From NCBI GenBank assembly GCA_964001325.1, contig CAXFCR010000001.1, positions 398 through 64,397 of the forward strand: DNA of 64,000 bases. The letters are read 5' to 3'. This document shows, piece after piece, positions 4,536 to 56,413 of this stretch. The DNA comes from an uncultured Gammaproteobacteria bacterium. Lineage in GTDB: Bacteria; Pseudomonadota; Gammaproteobacteria; Enterobacterales; UBA3532. The translations under genes and the position numbers were made by a program. Every line of letters starts with the position of its first letter. The stretch's first letter is position 1. The notes beneath the pieces are model-generated. The model was given only the letters and a program-made list of their open reading frames with translations, made no database searches and was not told the DNA's origin.

Positions 4536-4742
4536 ATGTTATGAAAAGTTGTCCTTTGGCTCTGAGATACGAAAAAAGGCCATTAATTTGCGAACGTAGT
4601 ATACCTGTAAAAGTTCAACTTTGTTCAAAATTTGCTATATTTTCCTTGATACTGTGTGAAGACTTGCCATAATGTTCACTAGAGCAGAAATGCCAAAAGC
4701 TTTACAACAATAAATAACAACTAATAACCTAGCGAGCGGTGA

Positions 4743-5800
<1,058 letters not shown>

Positions 5801-33241: not shown

Positions 33242-33712
33242 TTAAGCACTACGAGGTCGGCGGTGGCGACTAAACCACCGCGAAACTTCGTGCTTGATTG
33301 CATTTAAAAGTTGAGATCGGTTGTAATACGGAATGCTGTCTTCAGTCTTCTCATTAATATCAATACCAAACAGCACCAGGTTGTCAGGCTTCATACTTAA
33401 CGTCGCTGCAAGGCGAATACCATCGCATACGCCAACGCCATGGGAAGACATGCGTGAGACGACTTCCGGAAGCTCCTCTTCGTTAAGACGAAGCACCGTT
33501 CCATAGGGAAAGTCGCCCTGTATCGCATCCACTAGAATAGCAAATGCGCAGTCGCTAATATGATTAGGAATATTGGCTGGCGTATCACACTTTTCCAGTG
33601 CGATACGTCCCGGCCATCGCTGAGCCAAGTTTCGAAGTTCATCAATACAGTCCCAGCCGAGGCGATCCGCACCGTGCGGAGACCCTATTCCTAAAATCAA
33701 TATTTCACTCAC
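33242..33712 (-). CDS. Hydrogenase maturation endopeptidase (HoxW/HycI family)
   Basis: 156 aa starting LILGIGSPHGADRLGW. The start overlaps the large-subunit stop by 8 nt. Confidence 0.85.
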   Translation of the reverse strand: MSEILILGIGSPHGADRLGWDCIDELRNLAQRWPGRIALEKCDTPANIPNHISDCAFAILVDAIQGDFPYGTVLRLNEEELPEVVSRMSSHGVGVCDGIRLAATLSMKPDNLVLFGIDINEKTEDSIPYYNRSQLLNAIKHEVSRWFSRHRRPRSA

Positions 33713-35018: not shown

Positions 35019-35830
35019 GACTCGATTTCTCCTAGTTTAATGCGACGCTCATGTTTTTCATTCCAGATCTTGGTCGCATCACTAAAGACTGGGGCGGCAT
35101 TGTTAATAGATGCAAAGCGTCGGGCCACAGCGTCTGCGGCTAAACCAAAGCCTTCAAACCGGTTGCCGAGTGATGCTGTATTGGGATTTTCTGACGGGCC
35201 ATAACAGCTATAGCAAGGGGCACCGAAGGATGGGCATAATGCGCCACACCCGGTTCGGGTGACTGGTCCCATGCAAGCGGCTTGTTGTGTGACCAACACG
35301 CAAACGTTGTTCTTGCGTTTACAATCCTGGCAGACTTTTTCATTGGGATCGACAGGACGAACACCAAACAATAGGGAGCGCACAGCGGCCAGCATTTGTT
35401 TAACATCGACAGGGCAACCCCAAAGCTCGAAGTCAACTTTGACATGGTTCGCTATTGCGGCTGAAGTAGCCAAGGTTTCGATGTATTCCGGTTTGGCGTA
35501 GACTGACTGCATCCAGGCATCGGTATCGGCATTGTTTCTAAGTGCCTGGATTCCTCCTGTGGTAGCGCAGGCACCTACAGTAACCAGAAAGCGGCTATTT
35601 GCGCGAATGTCGTGGAGTCGATCGACATCTTCTGGCGTTGTTACACTGCCTTCGATAAATGCAATATCAACCCTGTCTTCTGGAGCCAGAGGGCCAGCTT
35701 CGACGAAGTGGACAATATCGACCAGCTCACTTAAAGTAATTAAATCTTCGCCCATATTAATAAAAGCGAGCTGGCAGCCCGAACACGAGGCGAATTTGTG
35801 AACGGCGATTCTCGGTTTTGAACGCGCCAT
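35015..35830 (-). CDS. [NiFe] hydrogenase small (delta) subunit, group 3-type
   Basis: The sequence starts MARSKPRIAVHKFASCSGCQ, continues with VGACATTGGI, and has C-terminal Cys clusters. There is no Tat signal. The likely start is 35830, inside the tracked ORF. Confidence 0.9.
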   Translation of the reverse strand: MARSKPRIAVHKFASCSGCQLAFINMGEDLITLSELVDIVHFVEAGPLAPEDRVDIAFIEGSVTTPEDVDRLHDIRANSRFLVTVGACATTGGIQALRNNADTDAWMQSVYAKPEYIETLATSAAIANHVKVDFELWGCPVDVKQMLAAVRSLLFGVRPVDPNEKVCQDCKRKNNVCVLVTQQAACMGPVTRTGCGALCPSFGAPCYSCYGPSENPNTASLGNRFEGFGLAADAVARRFASINNAAPVFSDATKIWNEKHERRIKLGEIES

Positions 35831-35831
35831 A

Positions 35832-36668
35832 TTAGAACCCCCTATGACGTAGTAGTTCTTCCACTTCCGGATATGAGAATACCGGACCATCTTTACATAC
35901 AAACTGGCTGCCAAATTGGCAATGGCCGCAATGGCCAACCGCGCATTGCATGTTTCTTTCCATGCTCAAATAGATGTTTTTGGGATCGACATTCAGGTCG
36001 ATCAATGTTCTAGCCGTTCCTGACATCATTGCGTCTGGGCCGCAAACCATGACTACACAGTTGTCTTTATCGTAGTCAGCTTTGTCGAATAGCACTGCGA
36101 CACGACCTAGCTCCCATTGGGGCCACTGGGTCTTTTCGCGACTGGCCGCCAACAGGATTTGGGTATTGGGTACCCGTCGCCACTCGTCATACTGTGGCTC
36201 CCACAGTACGTCGTGACGGTGTTTCACCGATTGCATGATAACCAGCTTGCCATATTCTTCACGCTTGCCAATGACGTAGCGAATAGAAGATACAACGGGA
36301 GCACAACCCAAGCCTGCAGTCACAAAGACGATGTCTTTGCCCTTGGCTTCATCAAGCGGCCAGCCGCGGCCAAAAGGTCCGCGCAGTCCCATCTTATCGC
36401 CTACTTGTAATCCCATCATGGCATTGGTAACACGACCGACTGCTCGGATAGTATGGACAAGCAGTTCGCCGTCATTTGACATGATTGAAATAGGAACTTC
36501 GCCTACACCATAGAGATAAAGCATATTGAACTGACCATGCTTGAAGGTGTAACTTTTCGCTATTTCGGGATCGGTGAATTTAATCTTAAAGGTATAGACG
36601 TCTGGCGTTTCCTGAACGCGTTCGACGATCTCTACTTCATGAGGAATGTAACAATTATTGGTTGTCAT
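35832..36668 (-). CDS. Hydrogenase gamma subunit: FAD/NAD(P)-binding oxidoreductase with C-terminal [2Fe-2S] (AsrB/HydG-like)
   Basis: An FNR-like fold with C-terminal CAVGHCGHCQ...C. The likely start ATG 36668 overlaps the beta gene by 14 nt. Confidence 0.85.
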   Translation of the reverse strand: MTTNNCYIPHEVEIVERVQETPDVYTFKIKFTDPEIAKSYTFKHGQFNMLYLYGVGEVPISIMSNDGELLVHTIRAVGRVTNAMMGLQVGDKMGLRGPFGRGWPLDEAKGKDIVFVTAGLGCAPVVSSIRYVIGKREEYGKLVIMQSVKHRHDVLWEPQYDEWRRVPNTQILLAASREKTQWPQWELGRVAVLFDKADYDKDNCVVMVCGPDAMMSGTARTLIDLNVDPKNIYLSMERNMQCAVGHCGHCQFGSQFVCKDGPVFSYPEVEELLRHRGF

Positions 36669-37818
36669 CGAGCAGCTCCGGTCCAACAATGCGAGTGGCT
36701 TCGCGTACAAAGTCGATTTGTGCCGGACACCAGGTGGTGCAGCGGCCGCATCCAACACACCCGATGCGGTCATATTGTTCGACCCAGGTGGCTAGCTTGT
36801 GTGTCATCCATTGGCGGTAGCGTAGTTTGGTATTTTCTCGCACCACTTCACCAACGATATAACTGTGATCCTGGTTAAAACAGGAATCCCATTCGCGATA
36901 GTGGCTGCTTGATTTCCCGTCGAGCTCCGGCTTTTCGACTTCTCGATGACAGAAGCAGGTTGGGCATACCGCAGTACAGTTGCCACAAGATAAACAACGC
37001 TCCGCAATCTCGTCCCAGATCGGATTATCCAACTGGGTCAATAATTTCGCATGTAAATCTTCATGTAAAAGCTTGGTTGACTGGCTGGCGGCCACGCTTT
37101 TTATCTGGCGTTCAGCTTCATCTAATTGCAAGCTGGATGCTTCGGTGGTGGCAAGGGTGTTCACGATGGTCGTGCCTTCATCGCTGCCAGCACGAATCAG
37201 AAAGCCTTCTTCGAGTTCGTCGAGAAGCAGGTCGTAGCCATCGAGAATTTCCGGTCCATCGCCCGTGGATTCGCAAAAGCAGGTATCGGCGCAATGGCTG
37301 CAATTCACGCCAACGAGAAATAACTTTTCCCGTCTTTCCGCATAGTACTCATCGCGATAAGTATTATGCAAAAAATGCTGATCCTGAATTTTAAGAGCCG
37401 CAATATCGCAGGCCCTTACACCAATAATGGCCGTTAACGGCGCATTGGGTTCGCCGGGTTTAAACACAAACCCGTTGTCGGTTTCAGAAACCTGCCAAAG
37501 CGTTTCTGTTGATGCATAAACATAGGGTTTGATGGCGCTATGTCCATTGGCCCAGCTAAAATTTCTTACGCCACCGGTGTGGGATAGCTGATAGCTACCG
37601 GGGGCTTGCTTTTCTTGAACACCAACGGGCAATTCGTCAAAGGAGCCAAGTTCAGTATAGGTTATTGCGCCGAGATCGACCTTGGGGCCGACAACGCGAT
37701 AACCCTTATTCGACAGCGTGTCATACAGCTGTGACAAGGATGAACGTGGCAAGAAGTGAGTGGCTGGCACTGGATACCTCCGTGAGTATGTGAGCAGTTT
37801 TCTCAGTACAGGATACAT
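36655..37818 (-). CDS. Hydrogenase beta subunit: 4Fe-4S dicluster protein (AsrA/HydB-like)
   Basis: The CLSCGNCTAVCPTCFC and CVGCGRCTTWCP motifs, 387 aa. It is the first gene of a beta-gamma-delta-alpha operon. Confidence 0.85.
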   Translation of the reverse strand: MYPVLRKLLTYSRRYPVPATHFLPRSSLSQLYDTLSNKGYRVVGPKVDLGAITYTELGSFDELPVGVQEKQAPGSYQLSHTGGVRNFSWANGHSAIKPYVYASTETLWQVSETDNGFVFKPGEPNAPLTAIIGVRACDIAALKIQDQHFLHNTYRDEYYAERREKLFLVGVNCSHCADTCFCESTGDGPEILDGYDLLLDELEEGFLIRAGSDEGTTIVNTLATTEASSLQLDEAERQIKSVAASQSTKLLHEDLHAKLLTQLDNPIWDEIAERCLSCGNCTAVCPTCFCHREVEKPELDGKSSSHYREWDSCFNQDHSYIVGEVVRENTKLRYRQWMTHKLATWVEQYDRIGCVGCGRCTTWCPAQIDFVREATRIVGPELLDDNQ

Positions 37819-37899
37819 TTTGGCTGAAACTTAGGTGTTAATTGATTGAGCAAGATCAAGTTTTCTTAGAATATTCCGACTAAAGTTGTGGTTATTCTG

Positions 37900-37913
37900 T
37901 TGATATTTGTCAA
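37900..37913. promoter_or_regulatory. Candidate FNR/CRP-family box TTGATatttGTCAA in the hydrogenase/hyp divergent region
   Basis: A 9/10 match to TTGAT-N4-ATCAA, centred about 88 nt upstream of the beta-subunit ATG and 12 nt upstream of the hypC ATG. Confidence 0.25.
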
Positions 37914-37924
37914 ACGAGGTTTTT

Positions 37925-38176
37925 ATGTGTTTGGGCATACCCATGCAAATTGAGTCGTTGGAAGAAAATGGGGTGGCAAAGTGCCATGCTGACGGCGTGA
38001 GGCGAGAGGTAAGTATTTCATTACTTGGAGAAAATTCGGTTGAGGTTGGTGACTTTGTGATGGTACATGTAGGCTACGCCATTCAAAAAGTATCGCCAGT
38101 GTTTGCTCGTTCGGCCTGGGAGACCACGGCCAAAATGCAGGCAGCAGGCGAGACTGATCAAATATCGGAAGTGTAG
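37925..38176 (+). CDS. hypC: Hydrogenase maturation chaperone HypC/HupF
   Basis: MCLGIPMQI N-terminus with the essential Cys2. The tracked start 37907 is too early. Confidence 0.9.
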   Translation: MCLGIPMQIESLEENGVAKCHADGVRREVSISLLGENSVEVGDFVMVHVGYAIQKVSPVFARSAWETTAKMQAAGETDQISEV

Positions 38177-38178
38177 TT

Positions 38179-38544
38179 ATGCATGAGCTATCCGTATGTC
38201 GTCAATTAGTTCAACAATTGACCCAATTGGCTCAAAAGCATCAAGCCACCAAGATCACGCTGGTAGAGCTATCCGTCGGGGCATTGTCGGGCATCGAACC
38301 TGATTTGTTAAAAATGGCCTTTCCTATGGCAGTCAAAGGTAGTGTTGCGGAAGACGCGACACTCAGCATTGTCTGTCAGCCCGTAACCGTAAAGTGTCGC
38401 GACTGCCACAAGGAGTCTGAAGTAGCGACTAATCAACTGACTTGTCCGCATTGTGCCAGCCATCAAACCCAGCTGACTGGCGGAGATGCGATGTTACTAA
38501 CCCGCTTTTCGATGCGGCAGGAAGAGGAGAATCATTGTGTGTGA
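38179..38544 (+). CDS. hypA: Hydrogenase nickel-insertion protein HypA
   Basis: MHELS N-terminus and a CxxC...CxxC zinc site (CRDCH...CPHCAS). Confidence 0.9.
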   Translation: MHELSVCRQLVQQLTQLAQKHQATKITLVELSVGALSGIEPDLLKMAFPMAVKGSVAEDATLSIVCQPVTVKCRDCHKESEVATNQLTCPHCASHQTQLTGGDAMLLTRFSMRQEEENHCV

Positions 38545-39298
38545 TAACTGTGGTTGCAATATTACTCATGGCAACGAGCATTTGTTGGGTGAAGGAGGAA
38601 AGCTCCATCAGGTTCATGGAGAGCTATCCGTTGAAGTACTGGAAAACCTGTTACATGAAAATGATCACCAGGCCAGCCACAACCGCGAGCATTTTGAAAA
38701 GCACAGGGTGCTGGCTATCAATCTCATGTCTTCGCCAGGGTCAGGAAAAACAACATTATTGCAAAAGGCTTTGCCTGTTTTAGGCAAAAAGTACCGTGTT
38801 GCAGTGGTTGAAGGCGATCTGGAAACAGAAAACGATGCCCAGCGGCTTCGCGATGCGGGCGTTGAGGCCATTCAAATCACTACCGGCAGTGCTTGTCATC
38901 TGGATTCGCATATGGTGCACGATGCACTTCACAAACTGAACCTGGCCGAGCTGGATATCGTTTTCATAGAAAATGTAGGTAACCTCGTTTGCCCAGCCAG
39001 TTTTGATTTGGGGCATCACTTGAATGTTGTCATGCTATCGGTTACGGAAGGGGATGATAAACCATCAAAGTATCCGGTTATGTTTCGCGCTGCCGATTTG
39101 ATGTTAATCACCAAAACCGACTTGTTGCCATATTTGGATGACTTTAGTTGCGAGCGTGCTGAAATGGCCATGAGTCAACTAGCTAAACCCATTGAAATTA
39201 TACAAGTATCGGCGCGCAATGAAGAGAGTTATGCGCCTTGGATTGCTTGGATTGAGCAGCAATGGAAAACACGTTATGAGGTAGCTCAGAGCGCATGA
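38537..39298 (+). CDS. hypB: Hydrogenase nickel-incorporation GTPase HypB
   Basis: N-terminal CDNCGC (CxxCGC) site and a G1 motif SSPGSGKTT. 253 aa. Confidence 0.93.
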   Translation: MCDNCGCNITHGNEHLLGEGGKLHQVHGELSVEVLENLLHENDHQASHNREHFEKHRVLAINLMSSPGSGKTTLLQKALPVLGKKYRVAVVEGDLETENDAQRLRDAGVEAIQITTGSACHLDSHMVHDALHKLNLAELDIVFIENVGNLVCPASFDLGHHLNVVMLSVTEGDDKPSKYPVMFRAADLMLITKTDLLPYLDDFSCERAEMAMSQLAKPIEIIQVSARNEESYAPWIAWIEQQWKTRYEVAQSA

Positions 39299-40389
39299 AA
39301 AATATTACCGAAGCAAAAAAATGGATGCACAAGATCAAAGAGTTGGATCTTCCCGATACGCCCATTCGCATCATGAATGTTTGTGGCGGGCATGAGCGTT
39401 CGATTACCCATGCTGGCTTGCGGGGCGTTTTGCCTGAACAGGTGGAGTTAGTTCCTGGTCCCGGATGTCCTGTCTGTGTCTGTCCAGAAGAAGATGTTTA
39501 TGCGGCTATCCAGGTTAGCTTAAATCACGACGTAACGCTGGTCGCTTTTGGCGATATGCTCCGAGTGCCGGTCAATGTACCAAGGTCGCAGGCTCGTTCG
39601 CTGGAGGAAGCCAAAGCCAAAGGTGCGGATATTCGGCCCATCGCCTCACCGATGGAAGCTGTTGCCATCGCTGATGCCAACCCTAATCGAACAGTGGTTT
39701 TTTTCGCGGCTGGTTTTGAAACGACTATGGCTCCAGTGGCCGCAATGCTTGCCTTCGAAGAGCGTCCAAATCTAAAAGTTTTGATCAGCGGTCGTCTCAC
39801 ATGGCCTGCAGTTGCCTTATTGCTCGACAGTGATTCACCAGGATTTGATTGCCTGGTTGCTCCTGGGCATGTTGCGACAGTCATGGGCGGTGATGAATGG
39901 CGCTTCGTTGCCGAAAAACACAAGCTGCCAGCAGCTGTTGCCGGTTTTGAGCCAGATAGCTTGTTAGCCGCCTTTTATTCGACATTACGGCAGTTTACTG
40001 AAGGCTCAGCTTTCCTTGATAATTGCTATCAGGAGTTGGTCACCGATGAGGGAAATCAGCCAGCTCAAAGTATTATGCAACGCGTATTTAAGGTAACCGA
40101 CGCCAATTGGCGAGGAATTGGTATCATTCCTCAGTCGGGTTTTGAGCTCGCTGAAGCTTATCAACACCTGGATGCTCGAAATGACTATCCCGCCTATCAT
40201 GAAGAAGCGCGTCAAAAAGCCGGTGAAAACCCTCCAGGCTGCGACTGTGCCCAGGTGGTTCTAGCCAAGATCCGTCCGAATGAATGCCGGTTGTATGGTA
40301 AAGCATGCACGCCAAGAACACCCTATGGGCCTTGTATGGTCTCCGATGAGGGAGCCTGTCGGATCTGGTGGGCTGGCGGACTAAGATAA
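39295..40389 (+). CDS. hypD: Hydrogenase Fe(CN)2CO assembly protein HypD
   Basis: The GPGCPVCV motif and C-terminal Cys cluster, 364 aa. Confidence 0.95.
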   Translation: MKNITEAKKWMHKIKELDLPDTPIRIMNVCGGHERSITHAGLRGVLPEQVELVPGPGCPVCVCPEEDVYAAIQVSLNHDVTLVAFGDMLRVPVNVPRSQARSLEEAKAKGADIRPIASPMEAVAIADANPNRTVVFFAAGFETTMAPVAAMLAFEERPNLKVLISGRLTWPAVALLLDSDSPGFDCLVAPGHVATVMGGDEWRFVAEKHKLPAAVAGFEPDSLLAAFYSTLRQFTEGSAFLDNCYQELVTDEGNQPAQSIMQRVFKVTDANWRGIGIIPQSGFELAEAYQHLDARNDYPAYHEEARQKAGENPPGCDCAQVVLAKIRPNECRLYGKACTPRTPYGPCMVSDEGACRIWWAGGLR

Positions 40390-40394
40390 GCGCT

Positions 40395-42686
40395 ATGTCC
40401 AGTAGTATCCATGCACGAACTCTCACTGTTAGCGGTAAGGTGCAAGGCGTCGGTTTTCGTCCGTTTGTCTATCAGCTTTCGACGCAGCTGGGCCTAACTG
40501 GCTGGGTTGAAAATCGCTGTGGTGAGGTGGCGATTTGGTGGGAGGGTATTGAAGCATCGTTGGATGCTGCTATAGGTAGGCTGATCACGGAGGCTCCACC
40601 TTTAGCTCAGCCTGTGATCAGTCAAATAGATACCGCCACATCTGTAGGCTTTGCTCGTTTTGAAATTAGAGCGAGTTGTCAGTCTGAGCATGTCGATATT
40701 CATTTGCCTGCAGATTTTTTTATGTGCCCAAAGTGCCAAGCTGAGTTAACAGAAAAGGGCAATCGGCGTCATGAATATCCTTTTATCAACTGCACCCACT
40801 GTGGGCCACGCTATACCATTATTGAGGCGTTGCCTTATGATCGTCCCTCCACGACGATGGCTGGCTTTCCATTGTGTGAGGCTTGTGCAAGCGAGTACAG
40901 CAATCCCGGTGACCGGCGATTTCATGCTCAGCCGATAGCCTGTCCAGATTGCGGGCCTCAACTTGAATATATCGAGAAACAACAAAAAATCACCGAAAAT
41001 ACAGAAGCAATTGCTGCGACGGTTAGTGCGTTGCGACGTGGCTGCATCATTGCCGTAAAGGGCATAGGTGGCTATCACTTGTTGGCTGATGCTTTAAACG
41101 ATGAAGCCATTGCCAGGTTGCGTGCTCGAAAACAGCGTCCCGATAAACCCTTTGCGGTTATGTTTCCTTGGTTGGGAGGTGATGGCACCGAAGACATTCA
41201 ACGCTATACAACTCCAAGCTCACGAGAATTGGCATTACTGTGCAGCCATGAGCGGCCAATTGTGTTGGTGGAGGCGGGGCAAGAACAACGGGCACAAGCG
41301 CTTAGCCGTCGAGTATCGGGTGCGTTGGGGCGAATCGGTGTCATGCTGCCTTACAGCCCTTTACATTTTCTATTGCTGCGTTCCTTTAATGGGCCATTGG
41401 TGGCGACGTCAGGCAATATCAGTGGCGAACCCGTAATTATTGATAATAGGATGGCGGAGCAACGATTGGCACGTTTTGCCGATGCTATGCTGCATCACAA
41501 CCGACCTATCGTGCGTCCCGCGGATGATAGCGTTGTTCAAGTTATTGCTAACCGGCAGGCTCCTATCCGGCTCGGACGAGGGACGGCTCCTTTGGAAGGG
41601 CGACTGCCTTTTACTTTGGATGAGCCGGTTGTCGCCTTTGGAGCGCAGCAGAAAAACACCTTATGCCTGGCTTGGAGAGATCGGTTTGTTCTGTCGCCAC
41701 ACATTGGTGATATGGGAGCTCGTCGTAGCTTGGAGGTATTGCAGGGTGTTTGTGATGACCTAAGCCGGCTTTATCAAGTGAAGCCGAAACAGTGCTTAAT
41801 CGATCATCATCCAAGCTATAGCTACCGGCGTATTGCCGAGCGCAATGATTGGCAAGTTCATAAAGTGTGGCACCACCATGCTCACGCCAGCGCTCTGTGT
41901 GCGGAGCATTGCGCTGATGATTGGCTGATTTTTTCTTGGGATGGCGTTGGTTTTGGGCCGGATAAAACCCTATGGGGTGGTGAGGCTTTTACTGGGCAGC
42001 CCGGTAATTGGGCGCGCATAGCGACGATTCAGCCATTTCGTCTACCTGGCGGTGACAAAGTGTTTAACGAGCCATGGCGCGTGGCGGCAGCGCTACTGTG
42101 GGAGGCCGGAATCGAAGAGCCTCGTGCATTGCCGGAGCAGGCGGTCTTGTTAGAGCGGGCATGGGCCAATCAGATACAATCGCCCCAAACCAGCTCGATA
42201 GGGCGGCTATTTGACGGTGTGGCATGGCTACTAGGTATTGTTGATGATACCTCCTTTGACGGCCAAGCTCCGATGCTGCTGCAACGCCATGCAGAGGCTT
42301 TTGCTTCAAAAGCGACACCGGCTGATTGGGATAGAGCCAATAGCATGGCTGAAAGTTCAATAACGCGGAAAGATGAATTCATGAAATTGAATTGGTCTGA
42401 TTGGCTAGCTGAACTCTGTTATGGAGAACGAAGTGTCAACGAGCGGGCCTGGTATTTTCATGCCTTGTTGGTGGAATATATCCTGATTGTTGCTCACAGC
42501 CAAAGTGTGCTTAAACCCGCTATTGGCTTGACAGGTGGGGTGTTTCAGAACCGGCTTTTAGTCAATATGTTTAGCCATCGCGCCAAGCAATATCGGTTTG
42601 ATTGGTATACCGGCCGTCAATATCCAGTGAATGATGGTGCGCTAAGTCTTGGTCAGGTACTGGAGTGGGGCGCGATGCGTACTTGA
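40395..42686 (+). CDS. hypF: Carbamoyltransferase HypF
   Basis: An acylphosphatase domain (VSGKVQGVGFRPF), two Zn-finger pairs (CPKC..., CTHCGPRY, CEAC, CPDCGP), and YrdC-like and Kae1-like domains. Confidence 0.95.
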   Translation: MSSSIHARTLTVSGKVQGVGFRPFVYQLSTQLGLTGWVENRCGEVAIWWEGIEASLDAAIGRLITEAPPLAQPVISQIDTATSVGFARFEIRASCQSEHVDIHLPADFFMCPKCQAELTEKGNRRHEYPFINCTHCGPRYTIIEALPYDRPSTTMAGFPLCEACASEYSNPGDRRFHAQPIACPDCGPQLEYIEKQQKITENTEAIAATVSALRRGCIIAVKGIGGYHLLADALNDEAIARLRARKQRPDKPFAVMFPWLGGDGTEDIQRYTTPSSRELALLCSHERPIVLVEAGQEQRAQALSRRVSGALGRIGVMLPYSPLHFLLLRSFNGPLVATSGNISGEPVIIDNRMAEQRLARFADAMLHHNRPIVRPADDSVVQVIANRQAPIRLGRGTAPLEGRLPFTLDEPVVAFGAQQKNTLCLAWRDRFVLSPHIGDMGARRSLEVLQGVCDDLSRLYQVKPKQCLIDHHPSYSYRRIAERNDWQVHKVWHHHAHASALCAEHCADDWLIFSWDGVGFGPDKTLWGGEAFTGQPGNWARIATIQPFRLPGGDKVFNEPWRVAAALLWEAGIEEPRALPEQAVLLERAWANQIQSPQTSSIGRLFDGVAWLLGIVDDTSFDGQAPMLLQRHAEAFASKATPADWDRANSMAESSITRKDEFMKLNWSDWLAELCYGERSVNERAWYFHALLVEYILIVAHSQSVLKPAIGLTGGVFQNRLLVNMFSHRAKQYRFDWYTGRQYPVNDGALSLGQVLEWGAMRT

Positions 42687-42738
42687 GCAAACAATACCTA
42701 CTTGAACTAACAATACCTACTTGAACTAACAATAGATG
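42681..42738. repeat. 19-20 bp tandem repeat x3 starting at the hypF stop codon
   Basis: tacttgagcaaacaatacc / tacttgaactaacaatacc / tacttgaactaacaatag. Confidence 0.85.
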
Positions 42739-42781
42739 AAAGAACTTGTCCTAAAAAATAATTGATATAGAGGAATACCCA

Positions 42782-43786
42782 ATGCAGGATAAATATATTC
42801 GGTTGGCTCATGGCAACGGTGGTCGGTTGATGCGCGAGCTGATTGATAGCTTGATAAGTCCTTACCTACCCAAAGATCTGGATACAACGCTGGACGCATC
42901 GCCCGTGCCAGTGCGCAGCGGTATGGAAATGCTGATGTCTACCGACAGTTTTACAGTACAGCCGCTTTTCTTTCCCGGAGGTAATATTGGTCACTTAGCC
43001 GTGCATGGCACGGTAAACGATTTGGCCGTTAGTGGTGCTGAACCGTCCCATCTGACATTGAATCTGGTCCTGGAAGAAGGCTTGGCTGCTTCTGAATTAG
43101 AGATTGTTATGGCGGGTTTTGCTGAAGCGGCTAATGCGGCTGGTGTTAAAGTCTGTGCCGGTGATACCAAAGTGGTGCCTAAGGGGCAGGGCAGTGGTAT
43201 TTATATGGTGACTACTGGCATAGGTTGGAAGTCTCCAGAGCTTGAGCTGTCGATGCATTGCATTCAGGCTGGGGACAAGATCGTTGTTAGTGGCTCGGTT
43301 GGCGATCATGGGATTGCGGTAATGATGGCGCGGGAGCAATTCGGACTTAGTGGTGACGTTAAGTCGGACGCCGCCTGCGTCTTGCCCTTTACACGTGTCG
43401 GGCGCGATATTTCTGGCGTGCGTTTTATGCGCGATCCAACCAGAGGTGGGGTTGCTACCGTTTTACATGAACTACAAATAACCACTGAGCTGGGTATAGA
43501 AATAGATGAGTCTGCGGTGCCAGTAAAGCCTGCGGTGCGTTCGGTTTGTGATCTGTTAGGCTATGATCCATATTATTTAGCGTGCGAAGGTCGAGTTGTC
43601 GCCGTAGTTGCTGCTGAGCACGCTGAGGCGTTGGTTGCCCAGTGGCGAGCTCTACCTGACGGTCAGGAAGCTGCGATTATAGGAGAGTTTGTTGCGGCGC
43701 AGGATGGGGTTTGGTTAAACACTCCACTAGGTGGCCAACGCTACCTGGAGCAGTTGGAAGACGAGCCCTTGCCAAGGATTTGTTAG
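42782..43786 (+). CDS. hypE: Hydrogenase maturation protein HypE
   Basis: A PurM-like fold, 334 aa, ending in the PRIC motif. Confidence 0.95.
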   Translation: MQDKYIRLAHGNGGRLMRELIDSLISPYLPKDLDTTLDASPVPVRSGMEMLMSTDSFTVQPLFFPGGNIGHLAVHGTVNDLAVSGAEPSHLTLNLVLEEGLAASELEIVMAGFAEAANAAGVKVCAGDTKVVPKGQGSGIYMVTTGIGWKSPELELSMHCIQAGDKIVVSGSVGDHGIAVMMAREQFGLSGDVKSDAACVLPFTRVGRDISGVRFMRDPTRGGVATVLHELQITTELGIEIDESAVPVKPAVRSVCDLLGYDPYYLACEGRVVAVVAAEHAEALVAQWRALPDGQEAAIIGEFVAAQDGVWLNTPLGGQRYLEQLEDEPLPRIC

Positions 43787-45025: not shown

Positions 45026-45487
45026 TCAAGAGTGATTGGCTGCTTGCTCTGTAATCTCAACACTGGGTAGCAGGCGCTGCATTAAAAAATCAGGCTTTTT
45101 CAAAAAATCCGCTAGCGTATATTCGTTTAATACCGCCATAAATGCGCGTGTCGCTTTATTCAGCACCCCAAATAGCTGGCAGCTTCCCGCAATTGGGCAG
45201 GCAACTTGCTCACAGTCTATAGGACAAAGTGTCGTTTCAAAGTCTGTTACGACTTGACCAATGACAATAGACTCGGCGGGCTTCCCAAGCATTACGCCAC
45301 CATTTTTACCGCGCACCGTATCTAAATAACCTAACGAGCCCAGCTTGTGTACCACTTTGATTAAATGGTTGTGAGACATATTAAACTGACGCCCGATTTC
45401 GGTCACCGAGACTCGCTCGCCTTCCGGCTGCAATCCAACATATAGCAGGGTGCGGAGGGCGAAATCGGTATGTCTGGTCAGTTGCAT
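45026..45487 (-). CDS. nsrR: Rrf2-family NO-sensing repressor NsrR
   Basis: MQLTRHTDFALRTLLY...VRGKNGG..LGKPA..I.IG.VV closely parallels E. coli NsrR. A Cys cluster (CPIDCEQVACPIAGSC) is present. Confidence 0.85.
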   Translation of the reverse strand: MQLTRHTDFALRTLLYVGLQPEGERVSVTEIGRQFNMSHNHLIKVVHKLGSLGYLDTVRGKNGGVMLGKPAESIVIGQVVTDFETTLCPIDCEQVACPIAGSCQLFGVLNKATRAFMAVLNEYTLADFLKKPDFLMQRLLPSVEITEQAANHS

Positions 45488-45502
45488 ATAATTGCCTGTT
45501 GC

Positions 45503-46471
45503 TTAGGGTGCCGAATGAACAAATACGTCCGCATGTATACGTTGGAAACTGGCGCCATTTAAAAATAATTGCTTGCGTAGTTTCTCTATTATATCCGGCG
45601 CGCCACAAAGGTAAATATGTGACTGCTTCAATGGCAACGGCTGATCGAGCACAAGTTGATCCAGAGCAAGCGTTTGGACGCCATCGGGCTGATCATCGCT
45701 CGGTTTTAATACTGAGAAGTGCAATTGAAGTTGTGGGTGCTTAGAGGAAAGCGCTTTTAGTTCGTTAATATAATACAGCGTATCTGTGTTATAGGCACCG
45801 ATAAACGCATGCATCTCTCCTTGATGTTCATGGGCAATGGCATCTTGGATAATGCCGTAAAGTGGCGCTAATCCAGTTCCTGTGCCAATAAATACGAGGG
45901 GGCATTCGACATCATCAACGCCATAGCAGCACTCACCCATTGGCCCTTGAATGCGCAGAGTGTCACCAACGGTCAGCTTATGCGCCCAATCACTAAAAGC
46001 GCCGTCTGGAATATGTTTGATATGAAATTCGATTTCTTTGTCATCATTGGGAGGATTGGCAATAGAGTAGCTTCGACCAGTTTCGCCATCGCGCCACAGA
46101 GTCACATACTGGCCAGCAATAAAGTCCATATCAGCCCGAACCTTTAATCGATAGACTTGCTTGGCCAGCCAGGTAATGTCTGTGATGGTTGCTTCGCTGG
46201 TTATTTGTGACTGATCAGGCAGGACTACCGTCATATCTTCCGTTGGTAAACAGGAGCATGCTAGAAACATATTCTGGCGCTTTTGGGCTGGTTTCAATCC
46301 GTTTTGTGCTGCCTGTGGTGGGGTGCCTTCCTGACAAATCATCATGCATGAGTGGCACACACCCGAACGACAGCTGTGTGGTATCCGGTGTCCGGCATCG
46401 AGCAGGGTATCCAATAACGGAGCATCTGGAGTCGCGTCAATGGTTTCAGACTGATACGTTACAACTGGCAT
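45503..46471 (-). CDS. 2Fe-2S ferredoxin + FNR-like FAD/NAD(P)H oxidoreductase (322 aa)
   Basis: An N-terminal CRSGVCHSC...C plant-type Fd motif, the RSYSIAN flavin motif, GPMG, and the GTGTGLAPL NAD(P)-binding motif. Confidence 0.85.
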   Translation of the reverse strand: MPVVTYQSETIDATPDAPLLDTLLDAGHRIPHSCRSGVCHSCMMICQEGTPPQAAQNGLKPAQKRQNMFLACSCLPTEDMTVVLPDQSQITSEATITDITWLAKQVYRLKVRADMDFIAGQYVTLWRDGETGRSYSIANPPNDDKEIEFHIKHIPDGAFSDWAHKLTVGDTLRIQGPMGECCYGVDDVECPLVFIGTGTGLAPLYGIIQDAIAHEHQGEMHAFIGAYNTDTLYYINELKALSSKHPQLQLHFSVLKPSDDQPDGVQTLALDQLVLDQPLPLKQSHIYLCGAPDIIEKLRKQLFLNGASFQRIHADVFVHSAP

Positions 46472-46510
46472 GTGGTCTCCTAAACTTGAAGAGCTGAAGG
46501 TGGAGGTGGA

Positions 46511-46592
46511 AGCTATAGCCGAGTTGTGCTCGGCTATAGCTTTACTATCTTTGTCGTGAGAATGTACCGACTTTGTCGTGAGGATGTACCGA
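46511..46592. repeat. Perfect 13-bp-stem hairpin plus a 22-bp direct repeat x2 between glbN and the reductase gene
   Basis: agctatagccgag ttgtg ctcggctatagct (46511-46541); ctttgtcgtgagaatgtaccga / ctttgtcgtgaggatgtaccga (46549-46592). Confidence 0.85.
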
Positions 46593-46603
46593 TTCGCCAG
46601 AAC

Positions 46604-46960
46604 TTAGCGGTTTAGCACATCGTCGCGAACGCTATTGGCTATCCCGGCAATCTCTGCAATATCTGCCTCGGCAACGCCCAGTTCCTGCAAGGTGGCACCT
46701 AGGTTTTCAATAACGGCGTCGAGGTGGACATCGTTGAGTTTCATATGTTTATGGCCTTCACGCAAGTCTTTGCCACTGTATTTATTTGGCCCGCCGAAAA
46801 CCATTGTGAGGAAAGCCTTTTGCTTTTGGGCTTGCGCAGCCATGTCAACGCCATCAAAAAACTCGCTGATACGGTCGTCCGAAAGGATCTTGCGGTAGAA
46901 AATGTCAACGGCAGCGTCTACGGCTTTCTCGCCACCAATTCGTTCATAGAGTGTGCTCAT
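46604..46960 (-). CDS. glbN: Group I truncated (2-on-2) haemoglobin, GlbN/trHbN type
   Basis: STLYERIGGEKAVDAAVDIFYRKILSDDRISEFF...KQKAFLT..FGGP..Y.G closely parallels cyanobacterial GlbN. 118 aa. Confidence 0.92.
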   Translation of the reverse strand: MSTLYERIGGEKAVDAAVDIFYRKILSDDRISEFFDGVDMAAQAQKQKAFLTMVFGGPNKYSGKDLREGHKHMKLNDVHLDAVIENLGATLQELGVAEADIAEIAGIANSVRDDVLNR

Positions 46961-47051
46961 AATCGTCTCCTGGGTTGTCTAGTCCACTATTAAGTGGCAT
47001 AAATAGCTGAGTTGTTTGTTCGTGGTATGCGAATGCAAGGGTTATTCCATA

Positions 47052-47074
47052 TAGATGTATTTAGTATGCAACAA
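47052..47074. promoter_or_regulatory. Candidate NsrR operator upstream of glbN
   Basis: tAGATGtATTTaGTATGCAaCaa compared with the remembered consensus AAGATGCATTT-N-AAATGCATCTT gives about 15/22 matches. The centre is about 100 nt upstream of the glbN ATG. Confidence 0.3.
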
Positions 47075-47181
47075 ATAATATAGTCGTATTCATGGATGTT
47101 GGCAAGTGGGGGATAGGTTTGGTTTGCCCTGGTATGGTGCGGCTCGATTTATGTTGGTGCGGTTTTTAAGGTGAGGATATT

Positions 47182-47922
47182 ATGCAGTTGGAACAAGATT
47201 TCGTTGCGCTGGTGACAGGGTGCAGTAGGCGTTGTGGCGCACTGTTGGCTTCACAGCTAAAGCAAGCGGGGGCCGATGTCATTGGACACTTTCGAACCAT
47301 GACTGACGATGTGGAGAGGCTTGATGCAATGGGGTGCACCATGATTCAGGCTGATTTAACGAACCACGATCAACTGCTACACATGATTGACTACATCATG
47401 AAGCACTATTCACATCTGTCTTTGCTTATTCATAATGCGTCGAGTTTTGAAGTGGTTGACTCCGACTACCAGGCTTCGCTGAAGCAGTTGCAACACTTTA
47501 TTGATGTTCATGTTTCGGCCCCCTTCGCCATCAATGAAGCATTGAGTCCATTGTTGTTGAAGTGCCCTCAGCAGCACGCAAATTTGATCCACATTACTGA
47601 TATATATGTCGACAATCCCGCTCCAAAATATCGCTCCTATTGTGCGGCTAAGGCAGGGCTACATAGCCTGTATATGTCGTATGCTAAACTATTGGCCCCC
47701 AAAGTTAGGGTGAATGCTATCCAGCCTGGTCCGGTACAGTTTTTACCAAGTCATACCCAACAACAGCAGCAGGACATTCTGGGGCAAACATTACTCAACG
47801 TCGAAGGTGGATATGGTCCGATCTATGAAGCCGTTAAATTCCTGGTGCTGAACCCTTATGTGACTGGTGCCTCCATCAAGGTAGATGGTGGCAGGTCGTT
47901 GACCGAATGGAAGTCCGTTTAG
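47182..47922 (+). CDS. folM: SDR-family dihydromonapterin/pteridine reductase (FolM-like)
   Basis: VTGCSRRCG (E. coli FolM has ITGGGRRIG), IQADL, LIHNASS, Y..AKA, and a VDGGRSL C-terminus. It clusters with folE. Confidence 0.78.
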   Translation: MQLEQDFVALVTGCSRRCGALLASQLKQAGADVIGHFRTMTDDVERLDAMGCTMIQADLTNHDQLLHMIDYIMKHYSHLSLLIHNASSFEVVDSDYQASLKQLQHFIDVHVSAPFAINEALSPLLLKCPQQHANLIHITDIYVDNPAPKYRSYCAAKAGLHSLYMSYAKLLAPKVRVNAIQPGPVQFLPSHTQQQQQDILGQTLLNVEGGYGPIYEAVKFLVLNPYVTGASIKVDGGRSLTEWKSV

Positions 47923-48336
47923 ATTGAGAACAATATCGGTGTTGTAATCGGCTTGCTCGCCTTGTAGAGCTTGATTACACGCTTTCAGGTAAGGCTCGTT
48001 TGAGCGGAAGCTTCTGGCCTTTTCTGGTGAGCCGTTGAATAAAATATCAAGGTCTAGCACCCTGTCTTTTACTTTGCTGAGAGGATCGTTACGATTGCGC
48101 CCAAGATATGTTTCGACCTGGCAGAGCTGCTTTTTAGTTTCAGTGGCGGCCTGAGACGTATGAAACGCCACTATACCGTTAATGAATCGTTTGTCGGAAG
48201 ATAGCAGCCCGACTGGCACAGTGTAAATTAGCTGACTAACCCATAGTCGCTCATACAAATGCGCCAGCCGTTCCATGGCTAGAGGAATATGCGTTTCCGG
48301 ACTTATGTTACTGCCAAGAGCACAAATGTAAAACAC
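47791..48336 (-). CDS. Divergent HPPK (FolK)-like protein, 181 aa, whose tail overlaps the folM 3' end by 132 nt
   Basis: The N-terminal 100 aa align to FolK (ALGSN..., GR.R.....R.LDLDIL), but the C-terminal PHY...R region is not recognisable. A canonical folK exists at 54466-54969. Confidence 0.55.
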   Translation of the reverse strand: MFYICALGSNISPETHIPLAMERLAHLYERLWVSQLIYTVPVGLLSSDKRFINGIVAFHTSQAATETKKQLCQVETYLGRNRNDPLSKVKDRVLDLDILFNGSPEKARSFRSNEPYLKACNQALQGEQADYNTDIVLNLNGLPFGQRPATIYLDGGTSHIRVQHQEFNGFIDRTISTFDVE

Positions 48337-48339
48337 GGA

Positions 48340-48957
48340 TCAGCCAAAGATCGGCTTGTTATGCGGGCCAATCTGTTGCAGAAACTCCTGGCGGGCCGCT
48401 TCTGAGCTTTTAAACTCACCGACCAAGGCGCTGGTTGTTGTCTCTGAGGAATGTTTCTCGACACCACGCATCATCATGCACATATGAATAGCTGTCATTT
48501 GTACGGCGACGCCGCGGGGTTTGAGAATGTCGTTAATGGCATCAGCAATTTGCTTCGACAGGTTCTCTTGAATTTGCAGGCGCCGAGCATACATATCAAC
48601 AATTCGAGCCAGCTTGGATAAACCTAACACCTTGCCATTCGGGTAGTATGCGACATGGCAGTACCCTAGAAACGGTAGCATGTGGTGTTCACATTGTGAG
48701 AAAAACTCGATATTTTTTACCAAGACCATATTGTCGTTGTCGCTGCTAAACACCGCTCCGTTAATCACATCATCCAGTGATTGCTCATAGCCACCGGTTA
48801 AATAGCGAATGGCTTTAGCGGCGCGTTTGGGAGTATCGACCAACCCTTCGCGCTTGGTATCTTCGCCGATGTCGGTCAATATGTTGGTATAGGCTTGTTC
48901 TAATCCGTGGTTGTGATCACTAATAACGGTGATTTTGTCTGCTGAGGGTTTGCTCAT
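48340..48957 (-). CDS. folE: GTP cyclohydrolase I (FolE type I)
   Basis: The [12 protein letters not shown] and ARRLQIQE motifs, 205 aa. Confidence 0.95.
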
Positions 48958-53672: not shown

Positions 53673-54503
53673 TCAGTGAAAGCTGTGGGCCGCACCAGGA
53701 AAGGTTCCTGCTTTGACTTCACTTACATAGCGTCCAAAGGCATCGCTAATGTCGCTGGCCTCGGTCATAAAGTTCTTAACAAACTTGGGTGGCTTACCTA
53801 GATTTAAGCCCAACATATCGTGCATGACCAGAACCTGACCGTCGGTAACATTGCCTGCACCGATGCCAATAACAGGGATCTGCAGCTCGTTGGTCACTTC
53901 TTGGGCTAATGGGGTTGGGACACATTCAAGTACCAGCAGTTGACACCCTGCTGCTTCCAGCGCCATTGCATCTTGGATTAGCTTTTCTGCGGCTGCAGCT
54001 TCTTTTCCTTGAACCTTATATCCGCCCATCGCGTTGACCGACTGTGGGGTAAGACCCAAATGCCCACAGACTGGCGTTCCCAGCTCAACCAGCGCCTGGA
54101 TTAAGTTACTGTGCCGCTGTCCGCCTTCAAGCTTAATCATATGCGCACCAGCCTGCATCAGCTTTTGAGCATTTGCCAAGCCTTGCTCATAGGTGGCATA
54201 GCTCATAAAAGGCAGATCGGCGACGATGAAAGCGCGTTGGGTACCGCGCTTAACGGCTGCTACGTGATAAGCCATGTCGTCGATGCTGACAGGAAGTGTG
54301 CTGTCATGCCCTTGTAATACCATGCCCAAGGAGTCGCCAACGAGAATCATCTCAACTCCATTGGCTTCCATGGTGGCGGCAAATGTTGCGTCATAGGCCG
54401 TTAGCGTAGCAATCTTTTCGCCATTGTCTTTCATCTGCTGCAATGCTTTGATAGTCACTTTGCTGTTAGCCACGTTCAATTTTCTCCAGGTCGTTGGTGT
54501 CAA
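53673..54503 (-). CDS. panB: 3-methyl-2-oxobutanoate hydroxymethyltransferase
   Basis: The [12 protein letters not shown] and KLEGG motifs. The start could be GTG 54473, which avoids the overlap with folK. Confidence 0.93.
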
Positions 54504-54969
54504 ATGGTCGCGCCAGTTCTGTTAGCGCTATCGATACATGTGTATCGTTGCTAAAACGTATACTTAAATTAGGGGCAATTTCCAAAAGTGGTAAGATAAC
54601 AAAGTTTCGCTCGCGCATGCCATAATGAGGAACGACTAGGTCGGGATGTTGAATTACCTGGTCAGCAAAAAGCAAAATGTCGAGGTCGAGGGTTCTTGGC
54701 CCCCAGCGCTCTTCCTTTCTCTCACGTCCACATTGCAGCTCAATGGCCTGAAGTTGGCCCAATAGTGAGAGGGGATCAAGCAGGGTGTCGACTGAACATA
54801 CGGCGTTGACATAGTCGGGTTGATCTTGTGGACCCATCGGTTTATTGCGATAAAAACTGGAAGTCTCTAGAAGCGTGGTTTGAGGCAGCTGTGCAACAAG
54901 CTGGAGTGCTTGCTCCAGTTGGCTTACTGGATGTGCCAGGTTGCTGCCGAGCCCAATGTAGCTAATCAT
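54466..54969 (-). CDS. folK: 2-amino-4-hydroxy-6-hydroxymethyldihydropteridine diphosphokinase
   Basis: The [20 protein letters not shown] and [13 protein letters not shown] motifs. Confidence 0.93.
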
Positions 54970-56345
54970 GAGTCTGACGGTTTTGGCGCTTGCTTGCGCC
55001 GATTACGAGATGGACGTTTACGGCGACGTCCAGCCTTTGGGTTAGTCCGCTGCTCGCGGTTGATCATGGCGTTTTGTTCTTGCTCATCCGCTGTTTGAAA
55101 AGCTGTCCACCACTCTGCTAGTTGATTATCTATTTCGCCGATCTTGGCACGAAGTAGCAGTAAGTCGTAGGCGGCGCGAAAACGTTTTTGCTCCAGAAGC
55201 TGGCGGGTTTTACGATTCTTTCGCTGTTCAAATCGAACCTGCAATGACCATATTTCGCGCATTGCTGAAGTGAAATGCTTGGGAATAGACACGCTTTGAG
55301 CCTGGCGACCAAGGACGATGCTGATGGCTTGCTGGAAAGCGGGTACCTTGGGTTCACCGCGTTCAATAAAATGATTCGCCATGCCCTGAACACTATGCCA
55401 AAGCAAAGCCGCGTTGATAAAGGCTGGGCTGACCGGGCGTTCCTGATTGACTCTGCTATCCGTTCCTTGCATCGCTAACTCCAGCAATTGCTGGGTTTTC
55501 TGCCCTTGAGGGCCTGCCAACTGTTCAGCCGTTTGCGGATAGAGTGGGGCGAATAGTTCATAACGTTGCAGTGACAAGAACGTGTTGTGACCTGCACCAC
55601 TCAGGAACAGCTTATTGCTTTCTTCGAACAAGCGAGCTGGAGGAATGTCTTTTAGCAAGTGAGCCAGATGGTGTATCTGTGATGCGGTTTCGGGAGCAAT
55701 GACAAAACCAAGCTTTTCGGCAAACCGAACGGCTCGAAGCATCCGAACCGGATCTTCGCGAAAGCGGGTTTCCGGATCGCCAATGATTTGGATGCGTTGC
55801 TTTTCAATATCCTTTAGAGCACCAGCGTAATCGAGAAGGTGAAAATCTTTTATTGAATAGTAAAGTGCATTGACGGTGAAGTCTCGCCTGACAACGTCAT
55901 CTTCAATAGTTCCATAAACGTTATCACGGAGAATACGGCCAGAGTCGTTGGTTTCTGCCCGCCCTTTAACTGGAGTGGGGTTACCGGCGCGGAAGGTGGC
56001 GACTTCAATAATTTCTCGACCAAAGGTGATATGAACCAGTTTGAAGCGGCGACCAATAATCCGGCTATTGCGGAATAGCGCTTTGATTTGTTCGGGTTTC
56101 GCATCTGTAGCGATATCGAAATCTTTTGGCGATTTTTGCAGTAGCAGATCGCGTAAACAACCGCCGACCAGATAGGCTTCATGACCTGCTTTGTTTAGCC
56201 GATGGAGGACTTTAATCGCATTGTCGCTGATTTGTTTGCGGGATATGGAATGTTGGGCTCGTGGAATAACAAGAGGTTGAAGCCCTGATGCATTGTTTCC
56301 TTTTCGAATAAGGTTCCGGCAATTATGCCATAATTTATTTAGAAT
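54966..56345 (-). CDS. pcnB: Poly(A) polymerase I; full length requires a non-canonical start (proposed ATT at 56345)
   Basis: The manually translated frame is open from 56366 and encodes VIPRAQHSISRKQISDNAIKVLHRLNKAGHEAYLVGGCLRDLLL..PKDFD upstream of the tracked Met at 55742. An in-frame TAA lies at 56367-56369, and a GGAG sits 7 nt before the ATT. Confidence 0.82.
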   Translation of the reverse strand: MLNKLWHNCRNLIRKGNNASGLQPLVIPRAQHSISRKQISDNAIKVLHRLNKAGHEAYLVGGCLRDLLLQKSPKDFDIATDAKPEQIKALFRNSRIIGRRFKLVHITFGREIIEVATFRAGNPTPVKGRAETNDSGRILRDNVYGTIEDDVVRRDFTVNALYYSIKDFHLLDYAGALKDIEKQRIQIIGDPETRFREDPVRMLRAVRFAEKLGFVIAPETASQIHHLAHLLKDIPPARLFEESNKLFLSGAGHNTFLSLQRYELFAPLYPQTAEQLAGPQGQKTQQLLELAMQGTDSRVNQERPVSPAFINAALLWHSVQGMANHFIERGEPKVPAFQQAISIVLGRQAQSVSIPKHFTSAMREIWSLQVRFEQRKNRKTRQLLEQKRFRAAYDLLLLRAKIGEIDNQLAEWWTAFQTADEQEQNAMINREQRTNPKAGRRRKRPSRNRRKQAPKPSDS

Positions 56346-56413
56346 GGTCCTACTCCACTGTTCCCGTTAAGTTGTATCTGGCTAATTGTTCCAATTTGTG
56401 GGCGCATATTGTA

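Follow-up and report, generated by a model that had tools for sequence, protein, structure and literature searches.

A conserved globin-reductase gene pair as a probable NsrR-repressed, two-component nitric oxide dioxygenase in an uncultured gammaproteobacterium

Introduction

What re-reduces truncated haemoglobin N after it has oxidized nitric oxide (NO) is, to our knowledge, an unsettled matter, for the Mycobacterium tuberculosis protein as for others. The question is raised by a locus in a 64-kb stretch of DNA from an uncultured gammaproteobacterium (contig CAXFCR010000001.1; the whole stretch is called the window here, and coordinates are positions within it), where glbN, encoding a globin of this kind, is followed by a gene for a ferredoxin-FNR (Fd-FNR) reductase and then by nsrR. 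The answer proposed below is that the three genes probably constitute an operon, repressed by NsrR and autoregulated, whose globin and reductase together act as a two-component NO dioxygenase, a predicted function that draws good support from comparative genomics.

Gene organization of the locus

The operon lies on the minus strand and consists of the following genes:

46604 to 46960, minus strand: glbN, 118 amino acids (aa), group I (N) truncated 2/2 haemoglobin (open reading frame call, Pfam)
45503 to 46471, minus strand: Fd-FNR reductase gene, 322 aa, three domains in the order [2Fe-2S]-FAD-NAD(P)H (Pfam, NCBIfam, family alignment)
45026 to 45487, minus strand: nsrR, 153 aa, predicted NO-sensing [Fe-S] repressor of the Rrf2 family (Pfam, NCBIfam, structure match)

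A spacer of 132 nt (46472-46603) separates glbN from the reductase gene, and one of 15 nt (45488-45502) separates the reductase gene from nsrR. An earlier note on this DNA, made from its letters alone, had described three co-directional minus-strand genes here, glbN, a gene for a 322-aa protein and nsrR, and the open reading frames listed above bear this out. The motifs that it had read in the 322-aa protein (CRSGVCHSC...C, RSYS and GTGTGLAPL) are likewise present in the translation, where they fall on invariant columns of the family alignment. The reductase gene has an AGGAG Shine-Dalgarno sequence 7 nt 5' of its ATG.

The globin

GlbN is a group I (N) truncated haemoglobin. Its residues 3-116 match Bac_globin (Pfam, 3e-21), and its top 19 solved matches are all group I proteins, M. 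tuberculosis HbN entries among them at 2.4e-17 to 8.5e-16, whereas named group II proteins match far worse, at 4e-10 to 5e-05 (2bkm, HbO 1ngk, 1ux8 and 2bmm). The cyanoglobin-like character assigned to it by the earlier note also stands, since the best solved relatives are truncated haemoglobin N (trHbN) of Tetrahymena (3aq5, 3.9e-36) and then the cyanoglobin of Synechocystis (1s69, 9.9e-34), with Synechococcus GlbN, Chlamydomonas globins and M. tuberculosis HbN (2.4e-17) as further relatives.

The key residues of GlbN are PheB9-TyrB10 (F21, Y22), GlnE7 (Q43), LysE10 (K46), GlnE11 (Q47) and the proximal HisF8 (H70), and Y22, Q43, Q47 and H70 align with Y25, Q46, Q50 and H73 of Tetrahymena trHbN, which are TyrB10, GlnE7, GlnE11 and HisF8 of that protein. 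In Tetrahymena trHbN the TyrB10/GlnE7/GlnE11 set is tied to O2 stabilization and to NO dioxygenation, and deposited variants of the protein (3aq7-3aq9) change single residues, with Q46E and Q50E observed among them. All 68 reductase-linked globins compared carry F21, Y22, K46, Q47 and H70, and 67 of them carry Q43; they are 56-81% identical to GlbN of the window, well above the identity of their reductases to the window reductase.

A HMMER search with GlbN gave 4525 matches, of which 10 long ones were scanned with Pfam for fused domains; those found were MCP/PAS, CheW, cytochrome c554-like, PNPOx and ankyrin domains. The trHbN domains joined to MCP/PAS, CheW, multihaem cytochrome c554-like and PNPOx-type flavin domains (P0195, P0198, P0204, P0207, P0209, P0235 and P0267) are 53-65% identical to GlbN. 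Rosetta-stone fusions were sought as well and rejected, with no Fd-FNR domain in the 10 scanned globin matches and no globin domain in the 120 best reductase relatives.

Fusions of trHbN domains 54-65% identical to GlbN with MCP signalling, PAS and CheW domains lend some colour to the idea that GlbN is a gas sensor and not an enzyme, its redox state being reset by the reductase. For the present locus this idea is barely credible, as the operon contains no signalling output domain or partner, none recurs beside it, and NsrR already serves as the locus's own sensor.

The reductase

The protein encoded after GlbN is a three-domain reductase of the FNR superfamily, of the BenC/MMOR/GcoB type. Pfam recognizes Fer2 (1.4e-12), FAD_binding_6 (1.6e-12) and NAD_binding_1 (4.6e-16), and a 38-sequence family alignment shows as invariant the [2Fe-2S] ligands C34, C39, C42 and C72, the FAD motif R133-x-Y135-S136 and the NAD(P)H motif G198-T199-G200-x-A202-P203. 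The top NCBIfam model, PRK05713 ('iron-sulfur-binding ferredoxin reductase'), is matched at 212.8 bits against a cut-off of 338, so that the protein is a relative of that equivalog rather than a member of it.

Its nearest solved relative, 5ogx, was deposited as 'Cytochrome P450 reductase' (1.3e-32) and is, we take it, GcoB, the direct reductase of a haem protein, the P450 GcoA. Other solved relatives are BenC (1krh, 3.1e-23), MMOR (1tvc), T4moF (4wqm) and CarAd (7c3a), and the FAD/NAD half of the protein also matches Hmp (5.7e-24 with NCBIfam, and 5.5e-13 with the E. coli protein 1gvh). Aside from one metagenome contig at 99% and one short fragment at 67%, the closest homologues are 46% identical.

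On a sister-strain contig, L087, the reductase call made by JGI (4001-4843) starts at an internal Met, giving a product of 280 aa that lacks Fer2 and is annotated 'NAD(P)H-flavin reductase'. A truncated reductase in the sister strain is rejected, because the DNA for the N-terminal part, upstream of that call, is identical to that of the window, and the difference thus looks to be one of annotation only.

Conservation of the globin-reductase pair

A profile scan, with one genome per species, yielded 80 reductase-homologue loci at 37-44% identity, no Legionella locus among them, and these loci span seven phyla: Pseudomonadota (gamma-, zeta- and betaproteobacteria), Planctomycetota, Acidobacteriota, Myxococcota, Hydrogenedentota, Sumerlaeota and Armatimonadota. 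A co-directional globin gene lies directly upstream of the reductase gene in 69 of the 80, and two of the other 11 loci end at a contig edge. An Rrf2-family gene is adjacent to 35 of the 69 pairs, placed downstream and co-directional as in the window in 17, divergently upstream in another 17, and upstream and co-directional in one. The earlier note had proposed profiling the neighbourhoods of such globin genes, and the adjacency proves not to be unique to this genome. Of the two homologues looked at first, L001-L003 have a Bac_globin gene, a 7-nt gap and the reductase gene, and L004-L006 have the same arrangement followed by an Rrf2 gene.

When every open reading frame within 4 kb at the 80 loci was clustered all against all, the recurrent families were the reductase (80), the globin (70, including one some 5 kb from the reductase) together with its antisense shadow reading frame, Rrf2 (39), a helix-turn-helix (HTH) regulator (10) and HPP (10). 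A further set, of redox/cytochrome genes, is shared by 7-8 of the 80 loci, and no oxygenase or other candidate acceptor is recurrent in these neighbourhoods. Pairwise distances of globins and reductases are moreover correlated (Mantel r = 0.54, a value reached by 0 of 999 permutations), which speaks for the pairing. The genes that flank the operon in the window were tried as parts of the module and rejected: folE and the genes for the short-chain dehydrogenase/reductase (SDR) and the HPPK-like, Nudix-like, PKD and TraB proteins have no matches beside the pair in L001-L086. Conservation is thus specific to the module and does not stem from synteny, and the folate/pterin genes are not part of it.

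These counts bear on the suggestion that the adjacency is without functional meaning, with GlbN reduced by housekeeping systems and the Fd-FNR protein either donating electrons generally or serving an oxygenase whose gene lies elsewhere. Oxygenase reductases (BenC, MMOR and T4moF) are indeed among the solved relatives, and 9 of 78 assessable homologue loci have no adjacent globin; yet a globin stands directly upstream in the great majority of loci across seven phyla, no oxygenase recurs, and the failure of the folE, SDR and Nudix-like neighbours to be conserved rules out simple synteny. The suggestion is accordingly very improbable.

Several loci depart from the arrangement seen in the window. 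In L001-L007, and in 10 of the 80 loci, the pair has as its neighbour a gene for an HPP-family membrane protein (PF04982; for example L004, 3565-4497). Nitrite transport activity has been reported for one HPP-family member (Maeda 2014, as cited in PMC7438415), and such a neighbour fits a nitrogen-oxide context. In 10 loci a 208-aa winged-helix regulator (HTH_34/PadR-like) is encoded divergently upstream of the pair, as in a metagenome-assembled genome of Methylococcales (L024, 4843-5469), and may be an alternative regulator of the pair. In Neptuniibacter the gene upstream of the reductase gene encodes two trHbN domains in 270-280 aa with an N-terminal MGCFFSKLK extension, and zetaproteobacterial loci have two tandem glbN genes before the reductase gene (loci for both arrangements: L009, 5147-5989; L012, 5178-5990; L020, L050 and L081). 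No HPP gene, second globin gene or Hmp-like gene was found within the 64-kb window.

Predicted control by NsrR

The region upstream of glbN and the 3' end of the reductase gene contain the following sites:

47077 to 47105, minus strand: promoter-like site with -35 TTGCCA (47105-47100), a 17-nt spacer and -10 TATATT (47082-47077), 10 of 12 consensus positions
47052 to 47074, minus strand: predicted NsrR operator TTGTTGCATACTAAATACATCTA, an 11-1-11 imperfect palindrome TTGTTGCATAC-T-AAATACATCTA
45588 to 45615, minus strand: tentative internal promoter TTTACC-16-TATAAT roughly 100 nt ahead of nsrR, within the 3' part of the reductase gene, 10 of 12 consensus positions in a count at chance level

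The earlier note had reported a partial NsrR box upstream of glbN; the site exists, and it is complete rather than partial. Positions 47052-47074 hold the full 11-1-11 pattern AAGATGCATTT-N-AAATGCATCTT expected of NsrR, with 16 of 22 positions matching the consensus AAGATGYATTTNAAATRCATCTT. A symmetrized matrix, for which the 23 best glbN-upstream sites of other genomes were used and the window was left out, gives the operator 21.0 bits, against maxima of 5.3 to 15.6 in 20 shuffled windows. The same matrix scan finds no further NsrR site in the 64 kb, where the next best 23-mer reaches only 6.8 bits. The operator has exactly the same right half-site, AAATACATCT, as the box 5'-AAGATGTATTTTAAATACATCT-3' located upstream of the Acinetobacter baumannii Hb gene, which has been shown to be NsrR-regulated (PMC11836069).

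Promoter-like sites occur in this region at chance level (3 found, 3.7 expected), so that the weight of the one upstream of glbN comes from its position relative to the NsrR box. The operator begins 2 nt downstream of the -10 hexamer TATATT and would cover the expected transcription start, a placement as expected for a repressor.

In 31 of 71 loci (L001, L004 and the 69 loci of the genome scan) a box matching at 16 or more of the 22 positions is likewise found upstream of glbN, compared with 8 of 400 random 280-nt control segments. Where an Rrf2 gene is adjacent, 26 of 35 loci have such a box, as opposed to 3 of 34 loci without one; the operator tends to be stronger where nsrR is adjacent.

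The regulator encoded in the window belongs to Rrf2 (Pfam, 8.9e-31), and its best solved relative is NsrR of Streptomyces coelicolor (5n07, 6.6e-17). Its residues D8, C92, C97 and C103 align with the [4Fe-4S] ligands D8, C93, C99 and C105 of 5n07, the Cys positions being those replaced by Ala in entry 5n08, and the predicted repressor thus keeps the [4Fe-4S] ligands of the Streptomyces protein.

A hairpin between the globin and reductase genes

The spacer between glbN and the reductase gene has two features of its own:

46510 to 46542, minus strand: stem-loop with a perfect 14-bp stem and a 5-nt loop, and no U tract on the sense strand
46549 to 46592, minus strand: two tandem copies of the 22-nt unit TCGGTACATYCTCACGACAAAG, just 3' of the glbN stop codon and upstream of the hairpin, with 0 expected by chance

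The 132-nt spacer had been described as structured, and it folds at -43 kcal/mol (z = -4.26), a value equalled by none of 200 shuffles and due to the 14-bp stem-loop. Rfam gives no match at E <= 1 in the spacer or the leader. Neither the hairpin nor the 22-nt unit is a dispersed repeat, as neither recurs elsewhere in the 64 kb, and a terminator-like match runs antisense to the operon, on the plus strand, and is not taken as functional there. The near-identical contig L087 carries three copies of the 22-nt unit (about 3733-3798) where the window has two, and the copy number of the repeat is thus polymorphic between strains.

In other genomes the gap between glbN and the reductase gene has a median of 21 nt and is mostly 0-30 nt long. 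Longer gaps tend to be structured, a folding z below -2 being reached at 14 of 20 other loci with a gap of 45-250 nt, but in just 6 of 60 random segments of 100 nt. The hairpins at several of these long-gap loci resemble intrinsic terminators, a T run following in L060, L058 and L081. The sequence of the intercistronic hairpins differs among lineages and their position is the same, which suggests that intercistronic structure is under selection, most simply for the production of more globin than reductase.

The same features could be read as the boundary of two transcription units, with the hairpin ending most transcripts so that glbN is monocistronic, and with reductase-nsrR having signals of its own and not being induced by NO together with glbN. 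A spacer of 132 nt where the median elsewhere is far shorter, a perfect 14-bp stem, and the T run after the equivalent hairpin in the three loci named above all accord with such a boundary. On the sense strand of the window, however, no U tract follows the stem, no promoter-like site was found between glbN and the reductase gene, and the short gaps in most homologous loci imply co-transcription. Separate units are for these reasons decidedly unlikely, and a single operon in which transcription would continue across the hairpin is preferred.

Proposed mechanism

The elements described above can be assembled into the following scheme. When NO is absent, holo-NsrR would occupy the operator at 47052-47074, over the transcription start, and block transcription. 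NO would damage the iron-sulfur cluster of NsrR, the repressor would leave the DNA, and the operon would be transcribed. Oxy-ferrous GlbN would then react with NO to give nitrate and ferric GlbN, which the reductase would return to the Fe2+ state by passing single electrons from NAD(P)H through FAD and [2Fe-2S] to the haem. Two polypeptides would in this way do the work of Hmp, with the added ferredoxin domain acting as a one-electron gate. With nsrR in last place in the operon, induction would also replenish the repressor, a form of negative feedback. The stem-loop would most likely be a partial terminator or a 3' barrier that stabilizes the mRNA, in either case yielding more globin than reductase.

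A reductase that keeps GlbN ferrous might also serve other chemistry, whether anaerobic NO reduction, nitrite reduction, removal of peroxide or peroxynitrite, or the buffering of O2 when oxygen is low. Peroxidase and other activities have been proposed for group I globins (Gardner review, PMC3820574), the NiFe hydrogenase and hyp genes of the window suggest a low-oxygen lifestyle, and the HPP gene beside the pair in some genomes belongs to a nitrite transporter family. Against such functions, the NsrR-type operator points to NO as the signal, and the invariant TyrB10/GlnE7/GlnE11 set fits NO dioxygenation as its role is generally understood. Other chemistry is therefore unlikely, if not negligibly so, and NO dioxygenation remains the preferred function.

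Several observations weigh against an NsrR-repressed two-component NO dioxygenase. The regulator scores 136.3 bits with the NCBIfam NsrR equivalog, whose cut-off is 182, and is thus a relative of that equivalog rather than a member, NsrR still being its top Rrf2 subfamily model (RirA reaches 100.2 and IscR 49.5 bits). Half of the globin-reductase loci have neither an adjacent nsrR nor a clear box, so that regulation of the pair by NsrR is not universal. The hairpin is strong and could act as a terminator after glbN. The correlation of globin and reductase distances given above is confounded by shared phylogeny, which contributes to it. No fusion of globin and Fd-FNR was found among the best 150 of the 4525 globin relatives, and a search of a limited literature collection found no experimental paper on this or any homologous globin-reductase pair. 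Finally, the fusions of trHbN to chemotaxis signalling domains mean that a sensing role exists for such globins elsewhere, which is why a small probability is kept for non-enzymatic readings.

A wider proposal can be put forward more tentatively, and is perhaps slightly more likely to fail than to hold: that the pair forms a two-component NO dioxygenase that is ancient, horizontally shared and present in at least seven bacterial phyla, that group I globins have in the three-domain reductase their long-sought physiological electron donor, and that the recurrent stem-loop sets a high ratio of globin to reductase, in the window beside a strain-variable 22-nt repeat.

Surrounding genes

Beyond the operon, the stretch 33242-43786 holds a NiFe hydrogenase cluster of four minus-strand genes, for the 4Fe-4S, FAD/NAD-type, small and large subunits, together with a maturation protease. 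The cluster is followed on the plus strand by hypA, hypB, hypD, hypF and hypE, which lie immediately upstream of the operon region. On the other side, a pterin cluster (47182-48957) is divergent from glbN and encodes an SDR resembling dihydromonapterin or pteridine reductase, an HPPK-like protein and FolE. The SDR gene and glbN share an intergenic region of 221 nt, in which the NsrR box lies, and this adjacency is not conserved in other genomes. The match of the HPPK-like protein is confined to the first 101 of its 181 residues, and a second, full-length folK is present at 54466-54969.

The gene pcnB, for poly(A) polymerase I (54966-56366, minus strand), has an unusual 5' end. Its frame is open from 56366, and ATG, GTG and TTG are all absent from the first 208 codons, the first canonical start being Met-227 at 55742. 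These start-less codons encode the conserved nucleotidyltransferase head (GGCLRDLLL...DFDIAT), so that a non-canonical start must be used; in-frame ATT codons are present at 56345 and 56309. The E. coli pcnB gene starts at AUU. On contig L087, an IS4-type DDE transposase is encoded at positions 1-317, adjacent to the TraB/GumN gene, and the window has no transposase reading frame at that place.

Comparison with known systems

A system of similar presumed function is the flavohaemoglobin Hmp of E. coli (1gvh), which likewise combines a globin with an FNR-type FAD/NAD(P)H module for NO dioxygenation under repression by NsrR, a function that the window system would share. Hmp consists of one polypeptide, its globin is of the 3/3 type and it lacks an iron-sulfur cluster, whereas the window encodes a 2/2 globin and a separate reductase with an extra N-terminal [2Fe-2S] domain. 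The window system may therefore work like Hmp, and with its two polypeptides it is not a member of the flavohaemoglobins.

The NO-dioxygenase group I globins, namely those of Tetrahymena (3aq5), M. tuberculosis (HbN, 1idr), Synechocystis and Synechococcus (GlbN) and Chlamydomonas (THB1, 4xdi), are of the same fold and family as GlbN of the window (3.9e-36 to 2.4e-17), and unlike it they have no genetically linked reductase. GlbN of the window lacks the pre-A extension of M. tuberculosis HbN, and its residue E10 reads as Lys, not as His as in Synechocystis GlbN. The Synechocystis protein has bis-histidyl ligation, which GlbN of the window, having Lys at E10, would lack. Reductases of oxygenase systems (5ogx, BenC 1krh, MMOR 1tvc, T4moF 4wqm and CarAd 7c3a) have the same domain order and cofactor motifs as the window reductase; they are distant from it (1.3e-32 to 3.6e-20), and its conserved partner gene is that of a globin, not of an oxygenase.

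A genetically supported analogue exists in narK-bjgb-flp-nasC, an operon of Bradyrhizobium japonicum, where mutants of bjgb or flp are more sensitive to NO (PMC4724949). There too one operon encodes a globin on its own and, in a separate gene, a flavoprotein reductase. Bjgb differs in being a 3/3 single-domain globin, Flp also serves nitrate reductase, and control is by NasS-NasT, not by NsrR.

The nearest precedent is a prediction for Legionella pneumophila, in which glbN-lpg2536, a cyanoglobin gene with one for a hypothetical ferredoxin reductase, was the sole predicted NsrR target and was proposed to oxidize NO in the manner of Hmp (Rodionov et al. 2005, PMC1274295). The prediction was repeated by Gardner (2012, PMC3820574), who argued that ferredoxin reductases donate electrons to truncated globins; no biochemical test of it was found in the literature searched. 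Compared by its published description, the Legionella operon has the same order as the window, a cyanoglobin-type glbN and then a ferredoxin-reductase gene with an NsrR site upstream, and the window differs in having nsrR inside the operon, a hairpin in the spacer and a variable repeat. The design of the operon was thus already predicted in 2005 and is widespread, and the window is a further example rather than the source of a new idea. What the present analysis adds to a prediction made for one genome is the breadth of conservation, a quantified operator and a recurrent intercistronic hairpin. A reductase kept next to glbN in most loci, often under NsrR control, is a concrete candidate for the electron donor, one that can be expressed and tested, and the practical value of the locus is as a ready-made system for studying globin-reductase recognition, not as a new concept. 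The Legionella prediction, seen beside these loci, is no curiosity of one genome.

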